Positions 3,035 through 9,513 of a stretch of 9,513 bases of DNA are shown here, in pieces (positions within the stretch are counted from its first letter, which is position 1; each line of letters begins with the position of its first letter). This stretch comes from a virus (Duplodnaviria; Heunggongvirae; Uroviricota; Caudoviricetes), in IMG/VR virus record IMGVR_UViG_2703718777_000005, positions 1-9,513 of that record, one strand, 5' to 3'. Below the pieces are notes generated by a model. It saw only the letters and a list, made by a program, of their open reading frames with translations, was not told the origin of the DNA and ran no database searches. A program made the translations under genes and the position numbers.

Positions 3035-3742
3035 TCACGAACTTTTCAGCCACTCCCTTGCCTCGATGTCATCCAGATGGCGAGATTGCTTCAGAATACC
3101 AGCTACATACTCCACCTTTGCTACTTGATGATAAGGCAACGTTATAGGCCTGTGATCCTGGTTAATGCTTGTAAATTGGTATTCTCCATCTCTGTCATAG
3201 CCAAGAACCTTAATCATGTTGTGTCCTTCAACGGTTCTGACAAACACCTCATCACCCGGGAATACTTTGGTGTTAGGCTCAATGAGTACATATTCTCCTG
3301 ATTTTATTCTGGGCCACATGCTGTCTCCTTTCACACGAAGACCAAAGGCATCTGGATCATCGCTATAAATTTTGAGCCACCCATCGCGCTCTTCGGTCAT
3401 CTCGATGGCACCATCAACACCAAGAATTGCCTCACCAACCACGCGCACTAACCCTTTTTTTAATTTGCCAACAAATGAAAGAGTATCTTCATCATTCGCT
3501 CCATTTAACGAAGTGCCGTGCTGAAGCCAAACAACATCAACGTTTAGAAATTTCGCAAGCGCATTCATTTTTTCCTGACGCGGTAAAGACTCAGCATTAA
3601 ACCATTTGCTAACGCCTTTGGACGAAAGAGAAAGGGCACGGGCTATAGCCATTCCCCTACCATGTTCATCAAGACCAGCTTCTTTACAGGCTTGCGCTAG
3701 CCGCTGGGCGAATTCTTTGCGCACTTTTTCATTCTGAACCAT
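3035..3742 (-). CDS. cI: CI-type prophage repressor (N-terminal HTH, C-terminal LexA/S24 autopeptidase domain)
   Basis: 235-aa ORF. The C-terminal domain carries the S24 catalytic motifs (GDSMWP serine; lysine in MIKVL). It is divergent from cro across a 78-bp operator region, and its start codon sits at the edge of that region (leaderless-like, as for lambda cI from pRM). Confidence 0.85.
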   Translation of the reverse strand: MVQNEKVRKEFAQRLAQACKEAGLDEHGRGMAIARALSLSSKGVSKWFNAESLPRQEKMNALAKFLNVDVVWLQHGTSLNGANDEDTLSFVGKLKKGLVRVVGEAILGVDGAIEMTEERDGWLKIYSDDPDAFGLRVKGDSMWPRIKSGEYVLIEPNTKVFPGDEVFVRTVEGHNMIKVLGYDRDGEYQFTSINQDHRPITLPYHQVAKVEYVAGILKQSRHLDDIEAREWLKSS

Positions 3743-5484: not shown

Positions 5485-7365
5485 ATGACGCCAAGTGAAC
5501 TTAGCGACCTGCTTTGGGCGCAGGTTGACAGGGTGGCTCCGCACCTGTTGCCAAACGGCAAGAAAGAGGGGCATGAGTGGGTTGCCGGTAACGTTAACGG
5601 TGACAAGGGAAACAGCCTTAAGGTCAACCTTAGCGGCAAGAAAAAATGGGCTGATTTCGCTGAGGGAGACGGCGGTGACATGCTTGATTTGTGGATGGCA
5701 TGTCGTGGAATTAACCTGCATCAGGCTATGCAGGAAGCGAAAGCATTTCTCGGTATCAAGGATGACGATCACCATTTCGATGCCAGACGTGAGAAGAAAT
5801 TCTCCAGACCTGATCGCAAGAAAATCGCCCGCTACGTTACCAGAACAGAATCCCATCTTGAGTACCTGCAATCGCGTGGCATATCGCCAGAAGTCGTAAA
5901 GCGCTACGAGGTTGTCAGCGGCAAGGTGTGGAATGGAGAACGAGAACTGGATGCTCTGGTGATTCCGTACAAACGCGATGGTGAGTTGTTGCAGGTCAAG
6001 CGAATCAGCACTGAGCGCCCGGACGGGAAGAAAGTCATTATGGCAGAAGGTGATTGCGAACCTTGTCTGTTCGGATGGCAGGCTCTGGACGCTGGCGTGA
6101 GGGCGGTTGTACTTTGCGAAGGCGAAATTGATTGTATGAGCTATGCGCAATACGGCATCTCGGCGTTATCCGTGCCGTTTGGTGGCGGGAAAGGTGCTAA
6201 GCAACAGTGGATTGAGTTTGAGTATCACAACCTCGACAGGTTTGAGGAAATATTCATCTCGATGGACGTTGATGATGTTGGTCGTGAAGCCGCAAGGGAA
6301 ATCGCAAGCCGACTCGGTGAACATCGTTGCCGTCTTGTTACTCTGCCGTACAAAGACATCAACGAATGCCTGATGAACGGTGTTACCGAGGATGAAATCT
6401 GGCAGTACATCGGCACGGCATCCTACTTCGATCCTGAAGAACTCTACAGTGCGCGAGAGTTTTACCAGGACACTATCAACGCTTTCTACGGCAAGCAGCA
6501 GTATCTGTTTAATCCACCGTGGGAATCTCTGGCAGATAAATTCCAGTTCCGTGAGGCAGAGTTGACGCTGGTCAATGGTGTGAACGGTCACGGAAAAACG
6601 GAGGTTGTCGGGCATATGGCACTTGAGGCAATGCGTCAGGGTGTGAAGACGTGCATCGCGTCACTTGAGCTGAAGCCTGGTATTCTCCTTAAGCGCCTTA
6701 CCCGTCAGGCGACGTGCTGCAAGATGCCGCCAGTGCTGGAAATTGACTCTGCATTTAAATTCTATGACGAAAGACTTTGGGTGTTTGGCCTGACCGGAAC
6801 GGCGAAAGCCGACAGGCTGATCGAAATATTCGACTACGCTCGCCGCCGGTACGGCATCCAGTTATTCATCATCGACAGCCTGATGAAATGCGGCATAGGT
6901 GACGATGACTATAACGGGCAGAAGGCGTTTGTTGACTCGATTTGCGACTTCAAAAACAAAACAAACTCCCACGTCATTCTCGTTACTCACTCGCGAAAAG
7001 GAGACAGCGAAGAAAAACCAACCGGGAAAATGGACGTAAAAGGCTCTGGAGCGATAACAGACCTGACAGACAACCTTTTCATCATCTGGCGTAACAAGGC
7101 TCGCGAGAGAGCGTTACAGAGAGTTCAGAGTGGTGAAAAGATGTCAGAGAAGGACGAACAGCTACTGGCATCTCCGGCATCTGTTTTGATGCTTGAAAAA
7201 CAACGTAACGGCGAAGGTTGGGAAGGTGGTGTCCCGTTGTTCCTTGACGAGCAATCGCACCAGTTCCTGCAACTTGAATCAGGATCGCCATATAGCTACA
7301 TCGCCAATATGCCGAAATCGGAATATGACGAGGCGTGGCGACAGGAAAACGTAACGGAGTATTAA
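5485..7365 (+). CDS. Bifunctional DNA primase/helicase (toprim domain plus DnaB/RepA-like RecA-fold helicase)
   Basis: 626-aa ORF. Toprim-like acidic motif VVLCEGEIDCMSYAQ; Walker A NGVNGHGKTEV; Walker B LFIIDSLMK. GAGGG lies 5 nt upstream of the ATG. It occupies the lambda P position. Confidence 0.85.
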   Translation: MTPSELSDLLWAQVDRVAPHLLPNGKKEGHEWVAGNVNGDKGNSLKVNLSGKKKWADFAEGDGGDMLDLWMACRGINLHQAMQEAKAFLGIKDDDHHFDARREKKFSRPDRKKIARYVTRTESHLEYLQSRGISPEVVKRYEVVSGKVWNGERELDALVIPYKRDGELLQVKRISTERPDGKKVIMAEGDCEPCLFGWQALDAGVRAVVLCEGEIDCMSYAQYGISALSVPFGGGKGAKQQWIEFEYHNLDRFEEIFISMDVDDVGREAAREIASRLGEHRCRLVTLPYKDINECLMNGVTEDEIWQYIGTASYFDPEELYSAREFYQDTINAFYGKQQYLFNPPWESLADKFQFREAELTLVNGVNGHGKTEVVGHMALEAMRQGVKTCIASLELKPGILLKRLTRQATCCKMPPVLEIDSAFKFYDERLWVFGLTGTAKADRLIEIFDYARRRYGIQLFIIDSLMKCGIGDDDYNGQKAFVDSICDFKNKTNSHVILVTHSRKGDSEEKPTGKMDVKGSGAITDLTDNLFIIWRNKARERALQRVQSGEKMSEKDEQLLASPASVLMLEKQRNGEGWEGGVPLFLDEQSHQFLQLESGSPYSYIANMPKSEYDEAWRQENVTEY

Positions 7366-7635
7366 ATGAATAAAAAACAATTAGCCATTCTCGAAAAGGC
7401 ATGGGATGCACAAATATCATGCGCTTTGAAAGAACAGGCACTACCAATAATCCAGACCAAATCGAAAATAGCCAGGCAGTTATGCGATGAAGGATTCCTG
7501 AACGAAGTTGAGATTACGCACCAGATGGTAACGTTCAAAGGGTATGAGATAAATCATCATGGTATAGCGGCGTATTGCTCCCATCTTCCTGATGACGTTG
7601 ACATTGATGAAATGGAAAGGGAGATGAAGCAATGA
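7366..7635 (+). CDS. Hypothetical protein (89 aa)
   Basis: ATG immediately follows the primase-helicase TAA (TAAATG); GGAG 7 nt upstream. No family recognised. Confidence 0.5.
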   Translation: MNKKQLAILEKAWDAQISCALKEQALPIIQTKSKIARQLCDEGFLNEVEITHQMVTFKGYEINHHGIAAYCSHLPDDVDIDEMEREMKQ

Positions 7636-7914: not shown

Positions 7915-8058
7915 GGTGACGATGAAGCAAATATCACTTCAATAAATCGCTTTTAAGGCATCACAATCGCTCTGTGGTGAGGTAAGCATGTGCAAGGCAT
8001 GTCGATAGGCAGCGAGAATGAAAAATGCGTCAGAATGCGTTTGAGGAGGTTTTAAGAA

Positions 8059-8274
8059 ATGAGTACGATAGCTGAGCTTGTCAGGGCTAATTTTCGTGAA
8101 GAGTTGGTGCGTTGGTATCGGTATCGTTCATCGTCCAGTTTGCCGCTTGATGAGTTGTATGAGCACTCACCTGCCGCACGGCGCTATCCGCGTGACCGTG
8201 TTCTTCGACGGTTGTTCAGACTCAATAATGAGTTTCAGCGCAACAGAATTATCCGGAGTCTGGATTTAAAGTGA
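8059..8274 (+). CDS. Hypothetical protein (71 aa, Arg-rich)
   Basis: ATG with GAGGAGG 9 nt upstream. Preferred over the overlapping out-of-frame ORF 8078..8269, which lacks an RBS. Confidence 0.45.
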   Translation: MSTIAELVRANFREELVRWYRYRSSSSLPLDELYEHSPAARRYPRDRVLRRLFRLNNEFQRNRIIRSLDLK

Positions 8275-8284
8275 AGGAGTGAGC

Positions 8285-8467
8285 ATGAGCGAGCAAATAT
8301 TCAGAGAGATTAAGCCACGGTTTTATCGCAAGGTAAGGGTGGTTTATCAGGACGAAAACAAGACATGTGCATACGCCATTCATAATGGTCGGTGGTCAGT
8401 GTTCGACACCAAAAACTTCGAGAAGAACTTCGAGAGGATTAAGGGTGATGAGGAAACTAACATTTGA
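8285..8467 (+). CDS. Hypothetical protein (60 aa)
   Basis: ATG at 8285 with AAGGAG 5 nt upstream. The track ORF starts at GTG 8279, but the ATG has the better RBS spacing. Its 3' end overlaps the ninB start by 20 nt. Confidence 0.4.
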   Translation: MSEQIFREIKPRFYRKVRVVYQDENKTCAYAIHNGRWSVFDTKNFEKNFERIKGDEETNI

Positions 8468-8864
8468 ACTAAGAAGCCCCATCCATCAGCAGAACGCCAT
8501 TCAAGCTATCCAGCAAATTCTTCCAGACCCAACCAAACCAATCGTAGTAACCATTCAGGAACGCAACCGCAGCATTCGGCAAAATGCACGCCTTCACGCG
8601 ATGCTATCTGAAATAAGTAAGAAGGCTACATATCACGGAAAAGCAAGAAATATTGAGTTTTGGAAGGGGTTATTCGTTTCTGGTTGGCAGATTGCAACCA
8701 ACCAGCACCCTGAGATTATATCAGGGTTAGAAGGTGAGCTAATAAACATCAGAGAGAGTACGGCGACTCTATCTGTAAAAAAAATATCCGAAATAATGGA
8801 CTACATAGAAGCATATTGTGCCATGAACTCAATTCATCTTAGCGAATGGAGGAATTATGATTGA
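8448..8864 (+). CDS. ninB: NinB-family recombination protein with a divergent C-terminal half
   Basis: From the internal ATG at 8448: MRKLTFELRSPIHQQNAIQAIQQILPDPTKPIVVTIQERNRS, near-identical to the lambda NinB N-terminus as recalled. Total length 138 aa versus about 146 in lambda. The ORF ends EWRNYD* instead of the lambda-type EWKARWGDRAA*. Confidence 0.8.
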   Translation: MRKLTFELRSPIHQQNAIQAIQQILPDPTKPIVVTIQERNRSIRQNARLHAMLSEISKKATYHGKARNIEFWKGLFVSGWQIATNQHPEIISGLEGELINIRESTATLSVKKISEIMDYIEAYCAMNSIHLSEWRNYD

Positions 8865-9459
8865 GGTTTGGGTAGATATCGAAGGGATTCCATTTTATCA
8901 GGTTAGCAATAAAGGAAATTTCAGGTCTATTACGAGGGAAGTTACAGTAACATCAACCAGACAGAGGCCATATAAGAAAATAATTAATGGCACTAGTGTA
9001 AAACCATTCAAGTGCAAGTCGACAGGATATCTTCAAATAAAGGTATACGGTAAGAAATACAGCGCCCACAGGATAGTTGCGAAAGCATTCTGTACAGGGT
9101 TCTGTGATGGCTTGGTAGTTAATCACAAAAATGGGCGAAGAGATGACAATAGGGCTGATAACCTTGAATGGGTATCACATTCTGAAAACTCAAAACACGG
9201 ATATAAACAAAATGGAAGAATACCTATATCGCTAGGTAAATTTAGTGGTGACCATCCTGCCAGTAAAGCTGTTATTTCTACTGACATGAAAACTGGGGAG
9301 GAGGTTTATTATGAAGCAGCTATGGATGCTGTCAGAGAAGGATTTGATAGTTCGTCAATTAGTCGTTGCTGTAATGGCGAAAGCTCATATCACAAAGGAA
9401 GATTCTGGCGATTTGCAAATGAAAAAATGAAAGCGCGATGGGGAGATCGGGCTGCATGA
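8857..9459 (+). CDS. HNH homing endonuclease (NUMOD4-like N-terminus plus HNH motif)
   Basis: 200-aa ORF. N-terminus WVDIEGIPFYQVSNKGNFRS (NUMOD4-like); HNH core AHRIVAKAF ... VVNHKNGRRDDNRADNLEWVSHSEN. GGAGG lies 4 nt upstream. The last 9 codons (KARWGDRAA) match the lambda NinB C-terminus. Confidence 0.8.
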   Translation: MIEVWVDIEGIPFYQVSNKGNFRSITREVTVTSTRQRPYKKIINGTSVKPFKCKSTGYLQIKVYGKKYSAHRIVAKAFCTGFCDGLVVNHKNGRRDDNRADNLEWVSHSENSKHGYKQNGRIPISLGKFSGDHPASKAVISTDMKTGEEVYYEAAMDAVREGFDSSSISRCCNGESSYHKGRFWRFANEKMKARWGDRAA

Positions 9460-9513
9460 CTATCAAATCAAATACGCCAGCACACAACAAGGACTGCTGG
9501 CAAACGCCGCTTT
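9456..9513 (+). CDS. Partial CDS (5' end only); possible phage Dam-type N6-adenine methyltransferase
   Basis: ATG overlaps the HNH stop (ATGA). Translation MTIKSNTPAHNKDCWQTPL contains the D-x-W-x-TP motif typical of N-termini of phage Dam-family methyltransferases. Only 19 codons fall in the window. Confidence 0.35.
   Translation, partial: MTIKSNTPAHNKDCWQTPL

Follow-up and report, generated by a model that had tools for sequence, protein, structure and literature searches.

Why should the reading frame of an HNH endonuclease, in the early region of a Shiga-toxin (Stx)-converting lambdoid phage, end in the last residues of a different phage protein, NinB? The question arises near the right end of IMG/VR record IMGVR_UViG_2703718777_000005, whose 9.5-kb stretch of 9,513 nucleotides (nt) is what we analyzed (hereafter the window). 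The overall answer, which we consider probable, is that a homing-endonuclease cassette is lodged in ninB, the gene of the lambda Orf recombination mediator. Within this answer, the structural account (a foreign cassette, a chimeric NinB, nine resident codons serving as the nuclease tail, and both stop/start overlaps kept) seems nearly beyond doubt, and spread of the cassette driven by the nuclease is a proposition to which we lean slightly; the nuclease gene is probably selfish. The cassette consists of foreign, AT-rich ninB codons 43–134 plus an I-HmuI-like HNH gene that overlaps the end of this replacement. Two remnants of the resident ninB persist: codons 1–42, which continue in frame into the foreign part, and the final 9 codons with their stop, which are read as the HNH tail. 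All features of the ninB-HNH-dam segment discussed below lie on the + strand.

One line of evidence for the structural account is the nuclease tail itself. The HNH open reading frame (ORF; 8857–9459, 200 amino acids (aa), assigned from Pfam, the Protein Data Bank (PDB) and its fold) is I-HmuI-like in its core, which reaches to 9428, and its last 9 codons are ninB-derived. It ends in ...ANEKM-KARWGDRAA and a stop, and the lambda-type NinB proteins of phages SfI and mEp506 and of an E. coli AF46 prophage end in ...LALEWKARWGDRAA and a stop. The displaced 3' end of the resident lambda-type ninB (9430–9459, KARWGDRAA plus stop, in the HNH frame) is identical to SfI ninB at 30/30 nt, and the identity continues past the tail into dam, with 9429–9513 being 97.6–98.8% identical to insert-free ninB-dam junctions. 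The dam gene (phage N-6-adenine methyltransferase; 9456–9513, where it leaves the window) is annotated in P27, SfI, mEp506 and AF46, and the ATGA by which the HNH stop overlaps its start (9456–9459) is the same overlap that the ninB stop makes in insert-free phages. A first-pass annotation of this DNA had proposed, from the protein ends, that the HNH frame matches the NinB C-terminus and reads into a displaced ninB 3' end. This is confirmed in frame for the last 9 codons and by nucleotide identity on into dam, and the continuity refutes a coincidental match of KARWGDRAA.

Insert-free ninB genes, which had been anticipated in related prophages, are indeed plentiful, with insert-free ninB-dam junctions found in SfI, mEp506, AF46 and many related phages and prophages. 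The nearest such comparator, the AF46 prophage (L166), is 98.4% identical to the window over 8446–8573 and 97.6% over 9429–9513, and between these arms it holds 284 base pairs (bp) of lambda-type ninB vs. 855 bp in the window. The breakpoints relative to insert-free loci are sharp (8573/8574 and 9428/9429), and homology is lost exactly at 8573 in every lambda-type ninB of the phage and E. coli collections. The 855-bp cassette between them (8574–9428, replacing the 284 bp of AF46), which comprises the 3' two-thirds of a variant ninB together with the HNH gene, has a guanine-plus-cytosine content of 39–40% vs. 46–53% in the flanks and is compositionally foreign. Of the originally proposed insertion of a unit of about 580 bp into the ninB 3' end, the insertion stands, given the empty sites and an 8-mer at about 8850/9429 that is described below, and the size does not, as the unit is 855 bp and ninB codons 43–134 are replaced too.

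The consequence for ninB (orf) is a chimeric gene of 138 codons at 8448–8864, identified from the ORF list, Pfam, phmmer and the NinB annotation in P27, whose product ends in ...HLSEW-RNYD (the W at 8847–8849, the stop at 8862–8864). It matches the Pfam NinB profile (PF05772) with E = 2.8e-40 over profile positions 2–129 of 131 and lambda Orf (1PC6) with E = 1.4e-31. The resident lambda/HK022-type 5' part, codons 1–42 (8448–8573, the putative left homology arm), runs to the point where homology ends at 8573; it is 98.4% identical to insert-free AF46 and 82–86% identical to SfI and mEp506, and the 36-nt block at 8538–8573 is conserved across every ninB type compared. Codons 43–134 (8574–8849) belong, by tblastn and subfamily alignment, to a variant 'GLEGEFINIRESTA' subfamily that is common in metagenomes, and the corresponding residues are only about 37–39% identical to lambda-type NinB. 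Matches to this variant allele above 80% identity (tblastn, phage collection) comprise 63 Stx-type records and Salmonella phage SEN22 alone, all HNH-bearing, the next best match in that collection being at 44% identity, and in a search of the phage collection and IMG/VR no insert-free copy exceeded 56% identity. NinB had initially been read as lambda-like up to its ...EW; DNA alignment, tblastn and the 1PC6 alignment all disagree with this and restrict the lambda-like residues to 1–42.

Harder to place is the left boundary of the endonuclease gene itself. The 8-mer CGAATGGA at 8843–8850, a possible left insertion junction seen in alignments of the window, SfI and mEp506, equals the lambda-type ninB sequence that stands immediately before the retained tail, overlaps the right junction by 2 nt and fits a precise insertion at TGG/AAA (about 8850/9429). 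By our estimate, an 8-mer abutting the tail in this way would arise by chance with a probability of roughly 1e-3 to 1e-4; microhomology or coincidence could alternatively account for it. In phmmer, window NinB residues 1–130 align to lambda Orf 1–126, which, continued ungapped, places the window 'SEW' opposite lambda S128-D129-E130 and not E136-W137. The junction is therefore ambiguous, because the 8-mer and the protein alignment disagree and an insert-free variant allele was not found in the collections named above, and we place the edge, probably, at about 8850.

The HNH gene starts 8 nt before the ninB stop, which lies in a different frame, and brings its own translation signals (GGAGG and ATG within 8848–8859). 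The Shine-Dalgarno GGAGG (8848–8852), read from the sequence and annotated as a ribosome-binding site in P27, falls within the last ninB codons and codes for part of the new NinB tail W-R-N-Y-D. That the RNYD tail is merely the nuclease's ribosome-binding region was considered and is partly true; comparable ...W-R-x-Y-D/N ends are seen ahead of two other HNH types (L196 and L198, below), which ties the tail to the ninB allele too. A search of 8000–9513 for a promoter or terminator private to the HNH gene gave no promoter-like site on the + strand and no terminator, and we assume that the nin operon transcript serves for its expression. An intron-encoded endonuclease is ruled out, as intron-like RNA gave no Rfam match over 8300–9513 at E ≤ 1 and the coding sequences overlap on both sides. 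The HNH gene, judged by these signals, is a freestanding one that lies within the nin operon.

The protein carries NUMOD4, HNH_3 and I-HmuI NUMOD-like domains, with NUMOD4 and HNH_3 above their Pfam cut-offs (PF07463, 51.3 bits against 23.4; PF13392, 43.5 bits against 24.8) and PF22083, at 19.2 bits, under its cut-off of 27. I-HmuI (1U3E) is the sole significant PDB match both by sequence (E = 3.7e-14, residues 55–186 vs. 36–170 of 174) and in a Foldseek search (E = 3.5e-12, 194 columns), for which the query was an AlphaFold2 (AF2) model of the HNH protein with a predicted local distance difference test (pLDDT) score of 95.3. When 60 homologues are aligned, the HNH(N) motif residues H90, N102 and N111 do not vary, and H90 aligns with the histidine of the I-HmuI motif DHKDG. 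The homology to I-HmuI stops at residue 186; the 14 residues that remain, nine of them from ninB, are modelled as a lower-confidence terminal helix.

Both parts of the cassette seem to be under constraint. Compared with SEN22, the variant ninB part of the window shows a nonsynonymous divergence (dN) of 0.078 and a synonymous divergence (dS) of 2.8, for a dN/dS of 0.028, and the HNH core has a dN of 0.14 with a saturated dS that permits only an upper-bound statement on its dN/dS. As judged from these substitution patterns, the HNH gene and the variant ninB are both maintained by purifying selection. The variant NinB has no counterpart of the lambda Orf α5 helix: the 1PC6 alignment ends at lambda residue 126 and 8 residues remain. 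In lambda Orf this C-terminal helix (about 131–146, including R132, W137, R140 and W141) contributes modestly to DNA binding, which the R132A, W137A, R140A and W141F substitutions lower only modestly (PMC4118853). Members of the 'GLEGEFINIRESTA' subfamily that lack an HNH gene have short and very variable native tails, with lengths of 127–147 aa across the subfamily. Since the Pfam domain is complete, selection is purifying (dN/dS about 0.03) and such tails occur in HNH-free relatives, NinB is probably not disabled by the cassette, and the first-pass suggestion that its function is altered does not find support.

Several copies of the cassette genes look damaged. A run of eight adenines at 8777–8784 of the variant ninB is a run of seven in cassette-bearing loci L088, L193 and L194, where ninB is frameshifted (...SVKKYPK, stop) and the HNH gene is intact; this could be a sequencing error or genuine ninB inactivation. 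Three E. coli HNH proteins (P0004, P0005 and P0007; 190–191 aa) are frameshifted, being 97–98% identical over the first 74% and then running to a ...GDLQMKQ end, so decayed HNH copies are present in some E. coli genomes. In L174 the HNH gene is broken after CTAG from about 2049 (window position about 8996) by an inserted element that resembles IS5 in its end (GGAAGGTGCGAACAAG) and its ORF start (MSHQLTFAD...).

The distribution of the cassette bears on how it has spread. It is 98.5–100% identical to the window in more than 30 IMG/VR loci, and the junction ...AATG/AAAGCG... is constant across cassette-bearing loci. The left flank in those loci (the first 126 nt of ninB) is HK022-type (96–100% identical to the window) or lambda-type (81–85%), with the last differences from the window on this side spread from 8452 to about 8560. 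The gene 3' of the tail is dam, ninC (L088, L194), ninE (L173, L175, L184, L190, L195), ninD (L182) or a second HNH gene (L185), and the 30-nt tail has about six polymorphic positions that covary with the downstream gene. An invariant core whose flanks switch at variable points within short stretches of conserved ninB sequence is what would be expected if various resident ninB genes had been entered repeatedly, by gene conversion or recombination. In SEN22 the cassette is about 75–77% identical with the same left breakpoint region, and the right junction differs, in that only GCCGCATGA (AA, stop) of a P22-type ninB is kept, followed by ninD. The full arrangement is present in 77 of 5426 complete E. 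coli genomes. The idea of active or recent homing, raised at first reading, is made plausible by the near-identical cassette in many flanks, although the association of HNH genes with ninB is old and widespread.

This breadth becomes apparent from the relatives of the nuclease. HNH homologues with 43–97% identity occur in Yersinia, Serratia, Cronobacter, Pantoea, Klebsiella, Pseudomonas, Achromobacter, Aeromonas and metagenomes, and in 19 of the 23 readable loci the gene lies directly 3' of ninB. Their C-termini are variable past a conserved ...HKGxxWRF, and many are recognisable NinB tails that differ in type and length, such as ...SDASRLEIEWATRWGKS (L224), ...GTEHGVKWADEAKAA (L225), ...AFGTQRGVEWSPTSLGRAA (L222) and ...ERGVVWSDRARQEIVDDWESA (L097). 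In L225 the upstream NinB ends in ...AFGAEHDVKWGEAT and the HNH protein in ...FGTEHGVKWADEAKAA, each followed by a stop, so that the ninB 3' end is present twice. When the last 25 codons were scored in three frames against NinB C-termini, with 200 shuffles as control, five junction types beat all 200 shuffles in frame, two were borderline and none did so out of frame; short tails such as 'AA' cannot be scored in this test. The closest HNH relatives end in ...ERMAA or similar, lacking KARWGDR. Three relatives with 63–65% identity (L090, L092 and L093, upstream ORFs at about 2535–2993) end in ...ERMAA or ...EKAAA and a stop, and lie 3' of a DUF1367 gene, which may be a positional alternative to ninB; alternatively, the cassette may have moved with its two-codon tail.

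Other endonuclease genes occupy the same neighborhood. Two other HNH types lie 3' of variant-subfamily ninB (L196, 1910–2461; L198, 1913–2371), where ninB ends in ...DDWRGYDN and ...STWRVYNG, respectively, and the L196 enzyme (HNH_3 plus a weak AP2 match) itself ends in the NinB tail AIEWASRFGDKQRAAA. E. coli SH21PTE31 (L167, 1941–2995) presents a mirror-image case: a different HNH_3 gene lies between an intact ninB and dam, its ORF opens with the first 9 codons of dam (MTIKSNTPA), and dam restarts in recoded form (IKHKSETPKEVRDCWQTP...). The same second HNH gene follows a window-type cassette in L185 (2476–3416), placing two endonuclease genes in tandem. In L195 (IMGVR_UViG_2751185961_000005, 912–1905) a third endonuclease gene (HNH_3 plus AP2) is inserted at ninB codon 33; codons 1–32 of a window-type ninB (MRKLTFELRSPIHQQNAIQAIQQILPDPTKPI...), displaced by the insertion, open its ORF, and ninB restarts downstream with a recoded 5' end (MKCVKYHLTNES...). 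In this arrangement ninB has an endonuclease gene on either side, and both of these carry a displaced gene end. We put forward tentatively, as a view that falls somewhat short of even odds, that an I-HmuI-like clade ranging from enterobacterial to Pseudomonas-type phages has specialised on the ninB 3' end and carries a recoded, presumably cleavage-resistant target, that the retained tail may be a functional adaptor (right homology arm plus coupling) and not a scar, and that ninB-dam may be a multi-endonuclease hotspot with at least three unrelated HNH types, mirror-image displaced N- or C-terminal gene ends fused to the nuclease, and recoded copies that make the gene whole again.

A homing mechanism that would produce this arrangement can be outlined as follows. 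During co-infection, or when a phage meets a prophage, the enzyme would nick or cut a cassette-free lambda-type ninB, and the break would be repaired from the cassette-bearing copy. Homology on the left would come from the conserved 5' region of ninB, and on the right from the ninB tail, either by itself or together with the gene downstream. Carriers of freestanding homing endonucleases are shielded by divergence of the target sequence, and here the divergent ninB segment would be co-converted, presumably lacks the target site and would leave the carrier immune. The retained tail would permit entry into any lambda-type ninB, independent of the gene that follows, and keeping it in frame would both preserve the coupling to the next gene and supply a right arm that does not depend on the neighbor. 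As the resident tail is read by the HNH frame, the stop/start overlap with dam is unchanged and the element would be silent inside the nin operon transcript.

A number of observations weigh against this homing account, the main rival of which is passive lambdoid recombination. Lambdoid phages swap modules by ordinary homologous recombination at conserved boundaries, a process that could spread the cassette by itself and could yield the same pattern of an identical cassette, variable left crossovers and a covarying tail. About 1700 of the 5426 E. coli genomes have other ninB or dam arrangements, so the cassette has not swept the species. One junction is common to all E. coli copies, which makes the in-frame fusion in that clade a single event. 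The left junction of the endonuclease gene is marked by an 8-nt match and nothing longer, and the protein alignment suggests that the window 'EW' is not that of lambda. Among the 23 readable loci, 3 relatives follow a DUF1367 gene and 1 a gene of unidentified type, and in several relatives a NinB tail cannot be recognised; target specificity is therefore not absolute.

Under ordinary mosaicism, the variant ninB and the HNH gene would be a passenger 'moron' exchanged by general or Red-mediated recombination at short conserved ninB sequence, its spread would owe nothing to the nuclease, and the tail would be a scar. That both breakpoints lie in conserved ninB sequence (the 36-nt block and the 30-nt tail), that the whole nin region is mosaic, with three ninB types 5' of the same dam, and that the cassette is a minority allele in E. 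coli all agree with such a history. It accounts less well for a cassette that, at 98.5% identity or more over at least five downstream contexts, is far more uniform than its flanks, for the clustering of three HNH types at ninB and dam gene ends, all with the displaced end fused to the nuclease, and for an endonuclease under purifying selection whose catalytic motif is intact. On this balance we consider mosaicism as the whole explanation unlikely.

Still less probable, in our judgment, is a domesticated or competitive nuclease, i.e., an HNH enzyme that damages co-infecting or resident lambdoid genomes lacking the protective ninB allele, or that stimulates recombination with NinB, its own spread being a by-product. 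The strong purifying selection on HNH across the E. coli-Salmonella divergence and the tight linkage to a recombination mediator gene are in keeping with such a role, and one report describes an intron-encoded endonuclease of phage PhiPA3 as mediating competition between co-infecting phages (PMC11620839). A competitive role is also compatible with homing and does not exclude it. Against it, frameshifted copies and the one interrupted by what is presumably IS5 persist in prophages, as they would for a dispensable element. The last alternative, a native arrangement in which KARWGDRAA is the HNH protein's own C-terminus, or resembles NinB by chance, and ninB has not been interrupted at all, can point to the complete NinB Pfam domain and to a variant NinB about as long as its subfamily members, but has practically no probability left, being refuted by the nucleotide continuity of the tail into dam, the abundant empty sites, the end of I-HmuI homology 14 residues before the stop, the absence of KARWGDR from the closest relatives and the variation of the tail with the downstream gene.

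The window around this locus is that of a mosaic phage. Over positions 8400–9513 it shares 100% identity with phage P27, with Stx2 phage 86 and with dozens of E. coli O157:H7 Stx2a phages; GenBank records label the two genes only 'HNH endonuclease' and 'NinB'. The gene order, typical of Stx-converting lambdoid phages, is N (25–408, - strand), a eukaryote-like Ser/Thr protein kinase (1064–2110, - strand; Pkinase, E = 2e-46), cI (3035–3742, - strand), cro, cII, a helix-turn-helix replication initiator and a toprim/DnaB-like primase-helicase; small ORFs and then the nin region come next. Between N and cI sit, together with the kinase gene, a 153-aa ORF with no Pfam match that overlaps the kinase gene by 7 nt (2104–2565, - strand) and a gene for a DUF3024 protein (2633–2974, - strand). 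The replication gene (5485–7365, + strand) encodes one 626-aa toprim plus DnaB-like primase-helicase and not lambda O/P, and its 3' end (6935–7369) shares 99.1% identity with the insert-free AF46 prophage and about 85% with SEN22. Phage P27 has O/P replication genes beside a ninB-HNH region identical to that of the window, which shows how highly mosaic the surroundings are.

If the favored account is right, temperate lambdoid phages, among them the E. coli O157:H7 Stx2a phages, have in this locus a concrete example of probable activity of a homing endonuclease, and lambda genetics would make it an unusually tractable system for the study of homing in temperate phages. An active enzyme would act as a site-specific driver of recombination inside the nin region and would explain one class of the sharp mosaic junctions of Stx phages. 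For annotation, it should be noted that these phages encode a chimeric NinB and that the protein labelled 'HNH endonuclease' closes with nine residues of NinB sequence.

Among known systems, the enzyme falls within the I-HmuI group by sequence, motif and fold. It shares with I-HmuI an N-terminal beta-rich DNA-binding region, the HNH(N) motif and a NUMOD-like helix-turn-helix in that order, as well as the catalytic H, N and N residues. It differs in that it is not intron-encoded but has its own Shine-Dalgarno and ATG, preceded by an upstream stop codon, and is longer at the C-terminus by 14 residues, of which ninB contributes 9; the identity between the two is only about 29%. The flanking self-splicing RNA of a group I intron-encoded endonuclease is missing, as the Rfam result given above indicates, and in silico the element has the features of a freestanding homing endonuclease, namely presence/absence polymorphism with empty sites, no intron or intein, and translation signals of its own. 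In this it resembles the freestanding seg and mob genes of T4-like phages, which likewise lie between conserved genes or at the end of one, are polymorphic for presence and are expected to spread through break repair that co-converts flanking DNA. For mobE, an example of intronless homing, gene conversion is reported to mobilise the endonuclease gene together with flanking DNA (PMC2790892). Unlike the T4 genes, the window element resides in a temperate lambdoid phage or prophage, is known from its sequence only, overlaps host-gene coding sequence at both ends and reads into the displaced tail.

NinB-related and HNH sequence are also joined in one polypeptide in the Orf/NinB-HNH fusions (the DUF968 family, PMC4118853; 'NinB+HNH', PMC2034487). 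In the DUF968 proteins of Gram-positive phages, an N-terminal Orf-like domain is followed by a zinc-finger HNH; in the window the order is reversed, and the 9 NinB residues are a by-product of insertion and not a functional domain fusion. Our search of the literature for earlier accounts of Stx or lambdoid phages that carry an HNH gene inside ninB returned nothing specific. The closest parallel comes from the 'gene hybrids' that mobile ORFs form in fungal mitochondria, i.e., atp6 of Allomyces macrogynus and atp6, atp9, cox2 and nad3 of Glomus (PMC3630166), where the order is a gene core, an in-phase foreign C-terminal part, an endonuclease ORF and a native C-terminal remnant. The window has the same layout (core 8448–8573, foreign part 8574–8864, HNH 8857–9428, native remnant 9430–9459) and, as in the fungal hybrids, the native remnant is near-identical to that of relatives and the inserted part is divergent (here 30/30 nt vs. 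about 37–39% at the protein level). The fungal endonucleases are LAGLIDADG or GIY-YIG enzymes of organelles, whereas that of the window is an HNH enzyme of a phage, and the remnant in the window is only 9 codons long. The locus is a clear phage case of a gene remodelling already known from other systems, and it extends the fungal-mitochondrial layout of foreign gene end, endonuclease and native remnant to bacteriophages, with the twist that the remnant is translated as the nuclease tail and that the stop/start overlap coupling it to the next gene of the operon is preserved.

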